Source of the DNA: a virus
Strand: one strand, 5' to 3'
IMG/VR virus record: IMGVR_UViG_3300031555_005249
DNA length: 64,000 nt
Shown here: piece after piece, positions 3,278 to 62,300 of the stretch
Position numbering within the stretch: position 1 is the first letter of the stretch
Layout of the letters: the number at the start of each line of letters is the position of its first letter
Made by a program: the position numbers and the translations under genes
Notes under the pieces: model-generated
Databases searched by the model: none
What the model was told of the DNA's origin: nothing
Seen by the model: only the letters and a program-made list of their open reading frames with translations

Positions 3278-3306
3278 ATTATACTATAAAATTTTATAAA
3301 AGTCAA
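3278..3306 (-). promoter_or_regulatory. Consensus sigma-70-type promoter (TTGACT-17-TATAAT) for the RuvC unit
   Basis: Minus-strand reading TTGACTtttataaaattttatagTATAAT. Confidence 0.55.
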
Positions 3307-3318
3307 AAGGAGCAGAAT

Positions 3319-3546
3319 TTACTTCTGCTCCTTGGCTTTTTGTTCTTGCTCTATAAGTAATTGATATTGTTGTAAATCTCTTTGATATTCTAATTGGACT
3401 TGATTTTGAGTTTCAATATAAATATCTTTTAATAATGCAGCGATTGTAAAAGGCGGTAGATGATAATCATTAACTCCAGCATTTACAAGATTAATAAGAT
3501 TTTGTTTTAATTGTTCGTAAGCAACAGATTGAGGTAATTGAGCCAT
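3319..3546 (-). CDS. Hypothetical protein (75 aa, Q/E-rich)
   Basis: ORF track; start overlaps dUTPase stop. Confidence 0.35.
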   Translation of the reverse strand: MAQLPQSVAYEQLKQNLINLVNAGVNDYHLPPFTIAALLKDIYIETQNQVQLEYQRDLQQYQLLIEQEQKAKEQK

Positions 3547-4046
3547 TATTTAGTTCCTGTACTACCAAATCCGCCTTCTCCGCGCGCGGTAGTTCCAATA
3601 GAATTTACCTCATTAAATAGTACTGGTATATATGGAGTAACCACGATTTGTGCAATACGTTCTCCATGTTCTACTATTTGTACTTCATTTGAAGTATTCT
3701 TAAGAGCTACTATTAGTTCTCCTCGATAATCTGAATCAATGATACCTGTTCCATTGGCTAATACAAGACCACGCTTTGTAGCCATCCCAGAACGAGGATA
3801 AACTGCGCCAAACGTGCCTTGAGGTAGCTCAATAGCAATGCCAGTAGAAATCTTACGAACTTCGCCTGGAGCAAGGGTGATACGACTTTGCAATTCAAGA
3901 TCCGCATAAAGATCCCAGCCTGCTGCGTATGTACTGCCCTGCACTGGCTCGTGCGCAGTGGGTGAAAGTTTTACATAATTTACGTGGCTACGCCACATTC
4001 CATTAGTGTCACAAGATGTTACTCCTACCATATTAAAATGCTCCAA
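3546..4046 (-). CDS. dut: dUTP pyrophosphatase (dUTPase)
   Basis: Motifs AAGWDLYA, PRSGMATK, GIIDSDYRGEL are classic trimeric dUTPase motifs. Confidence 0.9.
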   Translation of the reverse strand: MEHFNMVGVTSCDTNGMWRSHVNYVKLSPTAHEPVQGSTYAAGWDLYADLELQSRITLAPGEVRKISTGIAIELPQGTFGAVYPRSGMATKRGLVLANGTGIIDSDYRGELIVALKNTSNEVQIVEHGERIAQIVVTPYIPVLFNEVNSIGTTARGEGGFGSTGTK

Positions 4047-4284
4047 TCTTATATTCTACGCTTGCTTCTCCACAAGGTTCTTTAGGGTCATCGAATACCT
4101 TAACCAAAGTTACAATATAATATTCATCAATAATTTCACCCTTTTGTTTGCGTTCTTTTTTTACCGAAGAGTATTTTGATAAGAGATAGCGCGTATCCGC
4201 CTTAGCTGCCTCTATAAGCGCAGCCGCCTCTTTTTCACTATCTGCTCTATGCTCTTCTGTTGTTTTAAGCAAATATTTAGCCAT
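4033..4284 (-). CDS. Hypothetical protein
   Basis: ORF track. Confidence 0.35.
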   Translation of the reverse strand: MAKYLLKTTEEHRADSEKEAAALIEAAKADTRYLLSKYSSVKKERKQKGEIIDEYYIVTLVKVFDDPKEPCGEASVEYKIGAF

Positions 4285-4306
4285 ATCCTTTTATCTCCTT
4301 TTATTC

Positions 4307-4588
4307 TTATAGATATTGAAAAGTCAAATCATCTATACTATAAGTTGTTACTGTTGTTTCTTTTAGTCTTTTTTCAATGCCTTCCATATAATCTTTTGCG
4401 CCTGAAAAACTAATATGCTTAATATCATATTTTTTAATAAGCTCGAAAATAACTTCATCGAGATCTTCAAATTGAACACCTATTGTGTCAACTATTGCTT
4501 TTTCTTTAACGACGCAAATTTTATAAAAAGGGGTTACTGGACTTCCGTGTATTAATATTGTATTCATAGACTGCTCCTTAATATTCAA
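4307..4588 (-). CDS. Hypothetical protein
   Basis: ORF track. Confidence 0.35.
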   Translation of the reverse strand: MNIKEQSMNTILIHGSPVTPFYKICVVKEKAIVDTIGVQFEDLDEVIFELIKKYDIKHISFSGAKDYMEGIEKRLKETTVTTYSIDDLTFQYL

Positions 4589-5003
4589 TTACTGCTTCTC
4601 CATATGGGAAAAGATAATAAGCAAAACAACCCTCAGGGTTTCTAATCCAAAGTTCCCAACTACCATCTGTTTGATCTTCTATTGCTAAAATTTCTCCTCT
4701 ATTAATCATACACTCAATAACGTCATTAGCTGCATTGTAAACTGTGAGAGGAGGAGTCATATCGCTATTTGTTTTATTTAAGTTAAATAAAGTAAAGTCG
4801 CGCTGTTCATGACATAAAAGCATAAAATACTTTTGTTCAAAATGGTTTAGAAACCAAGTTCTTAAATGTTCACGCGAAAGTTCAAGTTGAGCATCGCTAA
4901 TCTTAGGCTCTTTTTCCATCAACTGCTTATTTATATCATATAGATTTCCAAGAGAGACTTCTGACGTTTGCTTTGGAATTTTATCTTCATAGTTGGCTTT
5001 CAT
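4578..5003 (-). CDS. Hypothetical protein
   Basis: ORF track. Confidence 0.4.
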   Translation of the reverse strand: MKANYEDKIPKQTSEVSLGNLYDINKQLMEKEPKISDAQLELSREHLRTWFLNHFEQKYFMLLCHEQRDFTLFNLNKTNSDMTPPLTVYNAANDVIECMINRGEILAIEDQTDGSWELWIRNPEGCFAYYLFPYGEAVIEY

Positions 5004-5062
5004 TTTTCTTTCTCCTTAAATTGTTCTATATATAATAATTATAATTTAATTTTTTATTTTTG

Positions 5063-60113: not shown

Positions 60114-60473
60114 TTAATTTGATTTATTTCTTTCAATATAATTATATTGATTCTCAGTCACGGTAATAGTTTTTGTTACCTGTGTCCAATTGACTTCTTG
60201 TGGCTGGCGCCAATATTCAGTATCTTGAAGTTCAGTCAAAGCCTCATCTGCATTAAGCTCAAAGAAACGCTCATTAATATTTACCCAACGAGTGTGATTA
60301 CGGTTCCAACGACGCGGTTCATCATATTCTTCTTCAATAATGCAACAAGTGTCGTTTTCATCCTCGTCAAAATCAAGATAAAAGATATCTTTAAGCTCGT
60401 GTTCATTGAAATTCTCTCCTGCGTCATAGCGCGCCAAAAATTCTTTAACTTTCATCATTGATAACCTCCACAT
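60114..60473 (-). CDS. Acidic hypothetical protein
   Basis: ORF track. Confidence 0.35.
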   Translation of the reverse strand: MWRLSMMKVKEFLARYDAGENFNEHELKDIFYLDFDEDENDTCCIIEEEYDEPRRWNRNHTRWVNINERFFELNADEALTELQDTEYWRQPQEVNWTQVTKTITVTENQYNYIERNKSN

Positions 60474-60999
60474 TGCAACTTTTCATTACTTCAAGCGCTG
60501 CTTTATGTTTCTCTGGTGTAAGTCCGGCGCAACAGCTTGCATCTACGCGGATTTGGGTATTTGGATACATGCTACGTAATATCAATGCGTTAGAGATTAC
60601 GCATATATCCGTACAAACGCCACAAAGTTCAATTACATCTGCGCAACAAAATCGATCCGCCCAATTATCCCACATTGTATATCCATAAGTGGATTTATGT
60701 GCAGTATAAAATACGAAAGAATAAAGCTCAGGAATAATATCTTCACCTTCAGTCCCTTCCATACAATGGGGCGGCACATATTTACTTTCAAGACAAACGG
60801 CGTACACTTCTTCGTCATAGTGTTTATCAATAGTAAAAATAACTATATCTCCATTCTGGCGCGCTTCAATTACTTTATCGCGCACATTATAGATAATATC
60901 GCGCGCTTCAGGTGTTCCAAGGGCGCCATACACAAAATCATTCTGCATATCGATTATAATTAAAACTTTATTCATTATTTGTATCCTCCCACTTAACAA
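60445..60999 (-). CDS. Isochorismatase-family cysteine hydrolase (nicotinamidase PncA-like)
   Basis: LIIIDMQNDF, K, and catalytic Cys in CGVCTDICV. Confidence 0.7.
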   Translation of the reverse strand: MLSGRIQIMNKVLIIIDMQNDFVYGALGTPEARDIIYNVRDKVIEARQNGDIVIFTIDKHYDEEVYAVCLESKYVPPHCMEGTEGEDIIPELYSFVFYTAHKSTYGYTMWDNWADRFCCADVIELCGVCTDICVISNALILRSMYPNTQIRVDASCCAGLTPEKHKAALEVMKSCNVEVINDES

Positions 61000-61255
61000 T
61001 TATCATTTTACTGCCGAGCGTAAGAGTTTTATATCCCAACTTCTCTAAATAAGAGCCAACCGCTTCTGCCTCAGAGGGACCATCTACATTTATACGAGTT
61101 TGAAAATATCCTTCAGTTGCAGCTGCCCAGATATGTTTCATAAGATTTTTCTTATATTTTTTACCTAGAGTCATTGGTTTCTTGGTAAAAAGATTTGCTT
61201 CTTTTGCAGTGATATCTTTCATTACTCCATCTCCTCCACTATAAGTCATTTCCAT
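60968..61255 (-). CDS. Hypothetical protein
   Basis: ORF track. Confidence 0.35.
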   Translation of the reverse strand: MEMTYSGGDGVMKDITAKEANLFTKKPMTLGKKYKKNLMKHIWAAATEGYFQTRINVDGPSEAEAVGSYLEKLGYKTLTLGSKMIIVKWEDTNNE

Positions 61256-61323
61256 TTTTCTTTTCCTCTCTTTTTTCCCTTTTTTATTTTATAATTTATT
61301 ATATCATAAATTTTTAAAAAAAT

Positions 61324-61349
61324 AAAAGCAGATTATATGATCTGCTTTT
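61324..61349 (-). terminator. Hairpin terminator (aaaagcag-attatatgat-ctgctttt)
   Basis: Seen in sequence. Confidence 0.5.
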
Positions 61350-61750
61350 ATTCTACTTCGTGTTTATAATTAAGTGTTTTGAATTGGCGGCGATCGATGC
61401 ATTTAAGCTTCTCGCTTTCATTGATATTTTCTAGCAACAACTCACAATTAGCGCCAGTTGCACTAAGATTACGTATAGACTCCATCATTTCTGATAAAGA
61501 AACACCGTATGATTTTGCTGCTGTTGCTATTTTCTGCAGAGCATTGCTCATACTACTCTGTGCTGTTTGTAATTGTTCTTCTTTAGTACCCATTCTCACT
61601 TCTAACTCCTTCCATTGATGTACACCATCTCCTATTTTTACTGTGACGATTCCTTGATCAGAATCAATTGCGCAACCCACTTCGCCTTTCATTAATATTG
61701 GATTATTTTCATTCCAAGCCTATGGAGTATCATTTTTCATAATAAGGCGC
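61348..61750 (-). CDS. Second tail-fibre N-terminal-domain protein, 1 in-frame TAG
   Basis: MATYNLSTRLIMKNDTP-Q-AWNENNPILMKGEVGCAIDSDQGIVTVKIGDGVHQWKEL matches the tail-fibre N-terminal pattern P.WN..NP.L..GE.G...D.G..K.GDG...W..L. Confidence 0.5.
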
Positions 61751-61759
61751 GTACTTAGA

Positions 61760-62140
61760 TTATAAGTTGCCATTTTCTATCTCCTTTGCTATCTCAATAT
61801 AAGTTCCTTTTACACCTTGACTTTTGACCTGCGCAATACCAAATTTTTCCATTTTTTGCAATAGTGAAGTCCATACAGGGCGCGAAAGGCTTGTTTTTTG
61901 AATCATCTTTACAATTGAGATATTACCAGATAAACCAATTGTTTCTCTAATTGATTGAAAAGCCAATTTTTCATTATCTGTTAATGATTTGTAAAAATCT
62001 TCTACTAAAATTAGCTGATCAGCGCCAATGACCGCTTCTAAGAAATCCATTAGGCGCCCAAGATCTCCATCAAGTCTAAATTCACGAATATCTGCTTCAT
62101 ATTCTTTAGCTATTGCTAATAATTTATCATAAGTAATCAT
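61760..62140 (-). CDS. Hypothetical protein
   Basis: ORF track; consensus promoter at about 62165-62200. Confidence 0.35.
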   Translation of the reverse strand: MITYDKLLAIAKEYEADIREFRLDGDLGRLMDFLEAVIGADQLILVEDFYKSLTDNEKLAFQSIRETIGLSGNISIVKMIQKTSLSRPVWTSLLQKMEKFGIAQVKSQGVKGTYIEIAKEIENGNL

Positions 62141-62300
62141 ATTTTTATTTTCCTCTACATATTCTTTTAATAAATTATAATATAAATTTTACAGTTTTTC
62201 AACGAAAAAATCTAAAACCACTTTTAGATTCTATAAGTCGACCCTCTGCGTTCCGAACAGATATATAAAATAAAAAGCCACCTTCATAGGTGACTCTGGT

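Follow-up and report, generated by a model that had tools for sequence, protein, structure and literature searches.

What is the role of a short repeat that returns about every 2.3 kb, evenly spread, along one strand of a viral genome? This question is raised by a stretch of 64,000 nucleotides from the IMG/VR virus record IMGVR_UViG_3300031555_005249 (the window), an arm of a large phage recoded at TAG codons that holds replication and auxiliary genes. The minus strand carries all genes from ~2.7 kb to 62.7 kb, the plus strand carries genes only at 20–2728, and the repeat TTGAYT-17-(TGn)TATAAT recurs on the minus strand. An earlier note on this DNA (the original prediction) had described about 20 near-perfect sigma-70 promoters paired with hairpin terminators. 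Our results give good confidence that the repeats are promoters of the primary-sigma (sigma-70/sigma-A) class and of the Gram-positive extended −10 type, often fused to intrinsic terminators.

The exact pattern TTGAYT-N16-18-TATAAT matches the whole window 12 times; every match lies on the minus strand and has a 17-bp spacer. Dinucleotide shuffles of the whole window contain the same pattern 0.32 times on average and twice at most. In intergenic DNA, a strict and untrained motif gave 11 sense and 0 antisense matches, where a first-order Markov (Markov-1) model of the window's own 74%-AT intergenic DNA predicts 0.011 and none of 1000 simulations gave more than 1. A lack of enrichment beyond the AT-rich background had been named by the original prediction as the result that would speak against it; the enrichment is strong. 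A 29-nt position weight matrix (PWM), built from the 12 exact matches and iterated, gave bimodal scores, with 20 minus-strand sites at 23 bits or above and no plus-strand site above 14 bits. A 21st site (43828; copies are named here by their higher coordinate) has a weaker PWM score and is a canonical TTGACA-17-TATAAT upstream of a suppressor tRNA. Thus the scan yields 21 copies, all on the minus strand, in agreement with the number first noticed. All 18 positions listed at that time correspond to PWM sites, with offsets of 0–20 nt, and three copies (61326, 17716 and 9750) are additional.

Could such matches be chance products of AT-rich sequence, or repeats serving replication, packaging or protein binding? 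The AT content of the intergenic DNA would favor this, as would a generic loose sigma-70 scanner, whose counts were not enriched over shuffles (86 vs 81, 79 vs 70 and 98 vs 78). Because of these counts the generic scanner was dropped as evidence, and the signal therefore resides in the strict 17-spaced class only. Unbiased contiguous 8-mer counting, which lacks power for gapped motifs, did not recover the motif. However, the strict intergenic counts, the bimodal PWM scores, the fixed distance to a Shine-Dalgarno (SD) site and start codon, an orientation that tracks the genes and syntenic positions in relatives of 55–78% protein identity make a chance or non-promoter origin hardly credible.

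The anatomy of the repeat fits a promoter in every part, and the copies have every sequence feature of sigma-70/sigma-A promoters, as first proposed. The consensus is TTGAyTTTT..AAAA..TRTGnTATAAT, and the spacer is 17 bp at all PWM sites. The twelve seeds were picked by their hexamers alone, and they also share a T-run after the −35, an A-run in the middle of the spacer, T-R-T-G directly before the base preceding TATAAT, and an A/T-alternating stretch after the −10. The T at −17, T at −15 and G at −14 are nearly invariant, as is the −10 hexamer TATAAT. The −35 begins with TTG in 19 of the 21 window copies (frequencies in the family of relatives introduced below: T 1.0, T 1.0, G 0.87, A 0.87), and its positions 5–6 are biased to T (TTGATT), not CA. 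Copies with a degenerate −35 (TTTATT, ACTAAT) retain the TRTG/−16 element.

Downstream of the repeats, geometry is equally regular. At 17 of 21 sites an SD site (AAGGAG or GAGG) and a start codon that opens a real open reading frame (ORF) follow 23–64 nt after the −10, with a median of 42 nt; in the gene for a phage sigma factor, the −10 of the 51115 copy and an in-frame ATG at 51044 are likewise 42 nt apart. The arm has ~17 true intergenic gaps of at least 55 nt, and 14 of them contain a copy. Units between successive copies hold 1–10 ORFs (median 3) and span 0.6–7.7 kb, so the description of single-gene or few-gene units was roughly right. Core replication units are headed by copies too, namely those of gyrase, ligase, DnaB/primase/RecJ and PolIII. 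The claim that cassettes bracket particular genes holds in part. A gene for a protein like major vault protein (MVP) is truly bracketed, by the 60103 copy upstream and by a hairpin and the 57508 copy downstream. A copy also stands directly in front of the suppressor tRNA (43828), of the sigma gene (51115) and of each of two HNH homing-endonuclease genes (52977, 17716), but the sigma gene is not singly bracketed, as it heads a three-gene unit with an RNA ligase and a virion structural protein homologue. The latter (47814–48590, minus strand) matches phrog_2729, is assigned to Pfam YomU_Tube in the public gene call, and lies within an otherwise replication-like arm.

The same element was found across a lineage. 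Searches with the sigma and MVP-like proteins of the window gave 53 IMG/VR loci, on contigs of ~90–195 kb. Over 1.02 Mb of these loci the PWM gave 320 gene-strand and 18 opposite-strand hits, and strong hits on the opposite strand precede ORFs of their own orientation. The motif is strand-locked and syntenic in ~70 related contigs, with sites ~85 nt upstream of the MVP-like gene and right after its stop, down to 55–65% protein identity. An SD site with an ORF lies within 110 nt of 301 of 382 family hits (79%), in comparison with 23% of random positions. An element that is lineage-wide, tracks orientation and is conserved in position therefore behaves as a promoter.

The hairpins noticed originally are also real features of this arrangement. 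A GC-rich hairpin ends 0–6 nt before the −35, or overlaps it, at 11 of 21 copies; with random intergenic positions the average is 1.2 and the highest count 5, so copies do often come directly after a hairpin of Rho-independent type. The 11 hairpins have stems of 7–20 bp with 3–6 GC pairs, their energies lie between −9.7 and −24.3 kcal/mol, and TTGAyTTTT or TTTATTTTT comes directly after them. Ten of them fold at about −14 to −24 kcal/mol (z −4.4 to −7.8), and none of 200 shuffles was as stable. The stems of three reach into the −35 through A/T pairs. The hairpins sit just 3′ of a stop codon on the transcribed strand, as intrinsic terminators do, and the strongest hits of an independent terminator scanner are these same hairpins. 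The U-tract that follows them is broken by the G and A of the −35.

Family-wide data show what this proximity does to the −35. An adjoining hairpin is present at 161 of 404 family copies, in comparison with 5.8% of random positions. T at −30 occurs in 95% of hairpin copies and 62% of the others (p=1e-15), TTGACA in 2% and 11%, respectively (p=3e-4), and TTTATT and TTGTTT become common where a hairpin is present. The three TTGACA copies of the window (43828, 35514 and 5066) are all without a hairpin. More distant relatives of the Bacillota clade keep the hairpin and TRTGnTATAAT and have lost TTGA. These sequence patterns may be read as a terminator U-tract and a −35 with early spacer that are the same nucleotides, with the extended −10 compensating.

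According to our model, host core RNA polymerase (RNAP) with a sigma-A-type factor would start ~7 nt after the −10 and produce a short, A-rich leader of ~25–55 nt with a strong SD site. The −35 hexamer and the following T-run would form the terminator U-tract of the preceding unit, and this sharing would push the −35 toward TTGATT or TTTATT, for which the extended −10 would compensate. The first rounds would be carried out by host sigma-A; in later rounds the sigma-A-like protein of the phage is expected to recognize this motif as well. The outcome would be a chain of partly insulated units of 1–10 genes, each re-initiated at full strength.

Which sigma factor reads the repeat is a separate question. 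SPO1-like phages have divergent late and middle sigmas, and the original prediction had suggested that the sigma factor of the window might serve different, late promoters. Its sequence points elsewhere. The best PDB match is C. difficile SigA (7L7B, 5e-83), the protein also resembles other primary sigmas, and its score against the RpoD model is 334 bits, under the equivalog cut-off (NCBIfam). Region 2.4 reads FSTYATYWIKQSISR vs FSTYATWWIRQAITR in cellular sigmas, and region 4.2 reads SKERIRQIEEKAMRKL vs TRERIRQIEAKALRKL. The residues that contact the −10, the TG extension and the −35 are kept (Q437, R441, H455, E458, E585, R586, R588 and Q589), including both readers of the extended −10 (H455 and E458), and the changes are conservative (R584K, T440S and W433Y). 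Among 15 clade homologues, Q437, E585, R586, R588 and Q589 are invariant. K584 is limited to the closest sub-clade, and relatives with R584 use the same TTGATT-type −35; a co-variation of residue 584 (K/R) with the T-rich −35 was looked for and none was found. Since canonical contact residues are kept, the predicted specificity is the repeated motif and not a different late motif. The few motif-free intergenic gaps of the window share no second motif, and the region before 48614, where a weaker late motif had been suspected, has no −35/−10 pair with valid spacing. We therefore do not retain the proposal of separate late promoters for this sigma factor.

Host-RNAP-driven expression, in turn, is upheld. 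Among the proteins of the 64-kb window no RNA polymerase subunit genes were found, and therefore transcription by host core RNAP is the natural reading. Host sigma-A must act first, because the phage sigma gene itself lies behind a copy.

It may still be asked whether the main reader of the repeat is the sigma-A-like factor of the phage and not host sigma-A. As a replacement housekeeping sigma, it would keep the ~20 promoters of the arm active if host sigma-A were limiting, displaced or inhibited (e.g. in stationary-phase or sporulating cells), and the position of its gene behind the best copy would be a positive feedback. With canonical −10, TG and −35 contacts the protein should recognize the motif, its ORF sits 4 nt behind the top-scoring copy, several motif-using relatives have sigma homologues, and RpoD-like sigmas have been documented in large phages without their own RNAP (PMC7824862). 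Yet expression of the phage sigma itself needs this promoter class, residue 584 does not co-vary with the −35 type, and sigma-A of a Bacillota host prefers exactly this motif. In most motif-bearing relatives no sigma was detected within 10 kb of the MVP-like gene, these flanks being the part covered, a result that favors neither reading. We regard a leading role of the phage factor as rather unlikely; once host sigma-A has acted, the phage factor may either supplement or replace it.

To place the host, one genome per GTDB species was scanned by alignment of the MVP-like protein, and 80 loci were returned. Loci with at least 48% identity come almost only from metagenome-assembled genome (MAG) bins of Bacillota (Eubacteriales, Lachnospiraceae, Oscillospiraceae, Acutalibacteraceae, Clostridium, Butyrivibrio, Agathobacter, Bacilli, Erysipelotrichaceae and Selenomonadaceae), with one Saccharibacteria bin and one Methanobrevibacter bin as exceptions and none from Bacteroidota. 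Most of these loci carry the motif, strand-locked. The motif is absent in relatives of 40–45% identity binned with Riflebacteria, Myxococcota, Bacteroidota and other phyla, equally low-GC loci included. SD usage in the window is strong. From co-binning, SD usage and promoter type, the host is most likely a member of Bacillota, and the phage, a large, uncultured phage of gut or rumen, probably infects Firmicutes. Co-binning is indirect, so the Bacillota host is something we infer; if this is correct, the repeat is of the same type as the housekeeping promoters of the host itself.

When cultured phages were searched for near-identical sequence, a single match appeared, 62 bp at 90% identity to Prevotella Lak megaphages (32908–32969), which sits within degraded GIY-YIG-like sequence, and protein-level searches gave no cultured relative. 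The Bacteroidota host that the Lak match had suggested was rejected on SD usage, promoter type and MAG co-binning. In a Lachnospiraceae-binned sub-clade without the sigma-A-type motif, one locus (L071; 9800–10000 and 12430–12500) has another repeat, GTGAGACTTAGAGTTTCTCTGTGAAACAG, on both sides of the MVP-like gene, which may be another promoter or regulatory class.

Several points weigh against the reading as primary-sigma promoters fused to terminators. Transcription start and stop sites are predictions, and, like the host phylum and the question of which sigma acts when, they are derived by inference. The host assignment draws solely on the three lines given above, and the result on RNAP genes covers the window, so that such genes may lie elsewhere in the genome. 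At least one copy (17716) lies inside an ORF and has a poor in-register −10 (AATAAT). Ten of 21 copies have no hairpin, and therefore the terminator–promoter cassette is not obligatory. Moreover, the sigma-headed unit contains a virion structural protein homologue, and the promoter class is therefore not simply 'early'.

The composite of promoter and hairpin recalls the PeSLs (promoter-early stem-loops) of T4-type phages, elements that join a strong sigma-70-like promoter to a stem-loop terminator and through which modules are shuffled (PMC2839356, PMC4122927). The copies of the window might likewise be mobile modules, whose conserved stretch of ~60–100 bp serves as a homologous-recombination site for swaps of gene units. 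A window-specific block, headed by the 57508 copy and consisting of a 106-aa ORF, a 945-aa leucine-rich repeat (LRR) protein and a 395-aa Hint protein, fills exactly the interval from cassette 57508 to cassette 52977, and three relatives (L008, L009 and L042) have a single cassette in its place. Single-gene units of ~500 aa with a cassette on each side occur at different positions among relatives, two window copies (52977 and 47782) have an identical 40-nt core, and PeSLs share the composite architecture (PMC2839356, PMC4122927). However, synteny breakpoints fall on 86 of 145 cassette junctions (59%) and on 155 of 314 others (49%), an odds ratio of 1.5 with p=0.056 from non-independent pairs (p=0.39 if only the window is counted). 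Genes have also been exchanged within units, e.g. after the sigma gene. Similarity of copies at non-contact positions is 0.540 within genomes and 0.519 between them, which is detectable and tiny. Strains of 99.6–100% identity are collinear, without indels at cassettes, and are uninformative on end-points of replacement; copies also head core replication operons and not only variable ORFans. A recombination role is thus improbable in our judgement; the PeSL resemblance is one of architecture, and neither membership nor a recombination role is established.

The near-identical strains were retrieved through exactly matching proteins and come from the JGI samples 3300018494, 3300018495, 3300024269 and 3300024272 and from ENA ERZ27248314 and ERZ27248370. 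Apparent gene differences between them were traced to gene-calling around in-frame TAG codons. One strain, 99.6% identical over 11.8 kb, drops abruptly to ~79% inside a DUF5662 gene (44339–44800; breakpoint at window 44513 vs L054:11774), a recombination within a gene and not at a cassette.

In detail, the likeness to PeSLs (RB49/phi1, PST and nt-1) covers a promoter with stem-loop (11/21 window and 161/404 family copies), intergenic position, many copies, an SD site and ATG at the 3′ end, and flanking genes that are small and variable or of homing-endonuclease type (PMC2839356, PMC4122927). The position of the PeSL stem-loop varies (between or overlapping −35 and −10, upstream or downstream), whereas in the window it is always directly 5′ of or overlapping the −35. 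PeSL stems are often polyG/polyC and those of the window are each unique in sequence. PeSLs concentrate in hyperplastic regions, whereas the window copies are evenly spread and also head core replication operons, and PeSL phages have a Gram-negative host and belong to a different lineage.

Primary-sigma promoters of this density have closer parallels in Herelleviridae, large virulent phages of Gram-positive hosts (Staphylococcus phage K, Listeria phage CKA15/P100-like and Bacillus phage SPO1), with dozens of early and middle promoters of TTGAC(A/T)-17-(TG)nTATAAT type per genome served by host core RNAP and sigma-A, frequent extended −10 elements, interleaved intrinsic terminators, short units and a phage-encoded sigma. 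Studies of phage K report 58 early promoters and frequent extended −10 elements, and mapped start sites of Listeria phage CKA15 have TTGACTT and ATGxTATACT motifs (PMC11598898, PMC12282133). The window phage differs in having a full primary-type SigA homologue, TAG recoding and no distinct late motif in the window, and no sequence relationship to Herelleviridae was found. Gram-positive extended −10 ('TRTG'/−16) promoters are of the same kind, the phage copies being nearer to consensus and more uniform than typical cellular ones; it is known that an extended −10 can make up for a −35 that is weak (cited in PMC11598898). Group 2 jumbo phages (Iyer et al. 2021) also have a near-cellular RpoD sigma and no RNAP genes, and are presumed to recruit host core (PMC7824862). 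Their genomes exceed 200 kb, whereas relatives of the window have ~90–195 kb, and they use a family-B polymerase, whereas the window has a PolIII-alpha/DnaB/gyrase replication module. The cognate promoter of RpoD-like phage sigmas is outside the scope of that review (PMC7824862), and the window pairs such a sigma with a promoter class.

Table 1. Promoter copies, hairpins and the phage sigma gene of the window, in order along the minus strand within each group. Scores are PWM scores in bits for promoters, and kcal/mol and z values for hairpins.
Feature	Coordinates	Strand	Score	Remarks
promoter	62174–62202	−	27.8	TTGAAA-17-TATAAT; SD and ATG 33 nt after −10; drives 126-aa and 149-aa ORFs
promoter	61298–61326	−	30.8	degenerate −35 TTTATT and TATGATATAAT; −35 overlaps 3′ arm of upstream hairpin; start codon 42 nt downstream
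promoter	60075–60103	−	31.3	upstream of MVP-like gene (57552–60032); syntenic, ~85 nt upstream of the orthologue in most relatives
promoter	57480–57508	−	32.3	just after MVP-like gene; syntenic site post-stop in relatives
promoter	52949–52977	−	36.1	heads HNH_3 endonuclease / Pyr_excise unit
promoter	51087–51115	−	36.8	top score; directly upstream of phage sigma gene; no hairpin
promoter	47754–47782	−	36.1	heads six-ORF unit
promoter	45250–45278	−	35.2	
promoter	43800–43828	−	10.9	canonical TTGACA-17-TATAAT, 12/12 match; upstream of amber-suppressor tRNA (43615–43689)
promoter	43009–43037	−	31.3	heads gyrB-gyrA-peptidase unit (Pfam)
promoter	37795–37823	−	36.5	heads NAD-ligase gene
promoter	35486–35514	−	26.0	TTGACA, 12/12 match; no hairpin; overlaps 3′ end of ORF 35501–35752
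promoter	31457–31485	−	29.9	
promoter	30848–30876	−	31.6	
promoter	27716–27744	−	32.6	heads 10-ORF DnaB / primase / RecJ unit
promoter	19972–20000	−	34.5	−10 is TAAAAT
promoter	17688–17716	−	26.3	inside 3′ part of helicase ORF, upstream of HNH homing-endonuclease gene; least certain
promoter	15694–15722	−	34.5	heads unit with DNA polymerase III alpha
promoter	9722–9750	−	23.3	no recognizable −35 (ACTAAT), spacer and −10 intact; SD and ATG 30 nt downstream
promoter	5038–5066	−	28.3	canonical TTGACA-17-TATAAT, 12/12 match; no hairpin
promoter	3278–3306	−	28.3	last of arm; heads RuvC-like ORF (2745–3254, TAG as sense)
hairpin	61319–61354	−	−15.9; z −6.4	overlaps −35 of 61326 promoter
hairpin	57510–57539	−	−20.7; z −5.7	13 bp, 6 GC; ends 1 nt before −35
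hairpin	52977–53000	−	−15.9; z −6.1	last base is first T of −35
hairpin	47783–47806	−	z −6.3	ends sigma / RNA-ligase / structural-protein unit; abuts −35, no gap
hairpin	45269–45312	−	−24.3; z −6.4	20 bp with A/T extension; 3′ arm includes −35
hairpin	43044–43068	−	z −4.7	6 nt upstream of −35
hairpin	37826–37850	−	z −5.1	2 nt upstream of −35
hairpin	27738–27770	−	−20.5; z −7.8	15 bp; 3′ arm contains −35 TTGACT
hairpin	20002–20023	−	z −2.15	weaker; 1 nt upstream of −35; 7/200 shuffles as stable
hairpin	15721–15744	−	z −5.3	overlaps first two −35 bases
hairpin	3307–3333	−	z −4.4	abuts −35, no gap
hairpin	2713–2742	−		13 bp, no promoter partner; where minus-strand arm meets plus-strand genes (20–2728)
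phage sigma	50148–51083	−		primary-type SigA/RpoD-like, without region 1.1; Pfam regions 1.2, 2, 3 and 4

The large ORFs of the window encode DNA polymerase III alpha, gyrase A and B, NAD-dependent ligase, DnaB, RecJ, a superfamily 1 (SF1) helicase, a primase-like Toprim protein, guanylate kinase, an intein-containing NrdD and a BspA-type LRR protein, together with a protein with major-vault-protein shoulder and repeat domains and a full sigma-70-family protein. Six tRNAs are present, one with a CTA anticodon (the amber suppressor). Coding density rises from 87.4% to 93.5% when TAG is read as sense, and several apparent gaps vanish; TAG codons of this phage thus appear to be read as sense. ORFs at 54192–57029, 52279–52905, 33022–33969, 34135–35118, 14531–15418, 8800–9540 and 2745–3254 take this form, and fragments join into the 945-aa LRR protein, the HNH_3 endonuclease, GIY-YIG endonucleases and a RuvC-like protein. 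The genome resembles the 'Agate' clade described by Borges et al. (~154 kb, TAG-recoded) and may belong to it.

Selfish elements are unusually dense, with the NrdD intein, a free-standing Hint-domain ORF, two HNH genes and at least three GIY-YIG homing-endonuclease genes (6198–8885, 53008–54195 and 16468–17439, all minus strand; 8800–9540, 14531–15418 and 33022–33969). One of the HNH genes follows the promoter copy that lies within the 3′ end of the helicase gene. A group I intron lies at 28265–28620 (minus strand; Rfam, 78 bits), and a LAGLIDADG-type homing-endonuclease ORF (28553–29188, minus strand) is mostly upstream of it, its 3′ end overlapping the intron 5′ end (28553–28620); ORF 27776–28267 abuts the intron 3′ end. 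The MVP-like protein (826 aa, minus strand, with MVP shoulder and Vault_3 domains) has 69% mean column identity across the clade and no PHROG or NCBIfam match. Its homologues of 40–45% identity are found in MAGs from many phyla (loci L060–L139) as well as in the huge phages LR756500-3. Some lie on megabase-sized Myxococcota contigs (L104, Nannocystaceae ST9, 6.98 Mb; L095, Polyangia, 1.55 Mb), where the gene may be chromosomal or prophage-borne.

Altogether this is an ordinary kind of phage gene control, and the current view of phage transcription is unchanged. Modestly new are only the trade-off between U-tract and −35, and a primary-type phage sigma paired with a promoter class that it should share with the host. 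The promoter and terminator model (29-nt PWM, hairpin rule and leader geometry) is usable on hundreds of metagenomic genomes of this TAG-recoded family, and the absence of the motif from relatives binned with other phyla supports promoter type and SD usage as an indicator of host phylum. A design rule also follows, in which fused terminator–promoter junctions give up the −35 to the U-tract and the extended −10 compensates.

The results raise the question of what a phage gains from a second primary-type sigma that apparently reads host-type promoters. One answer, which we consider unlikely, is that a phage sigma without region 1.1 makes transcription independent of the state of the host primary sigma (e.g. 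in Clostridia that are in stationary phase or sporulating), that timing is set by TAG recoding, and that the overlap of U-tract and −35 has been selected. If this were true, the overlap would be a space-saving design that forces reliance on the extended −10, one promoter class would drive replication, structural-protein and suppressor-tRNA genes, and TAG recoding, not promoter switching, would set the timing of their expression.

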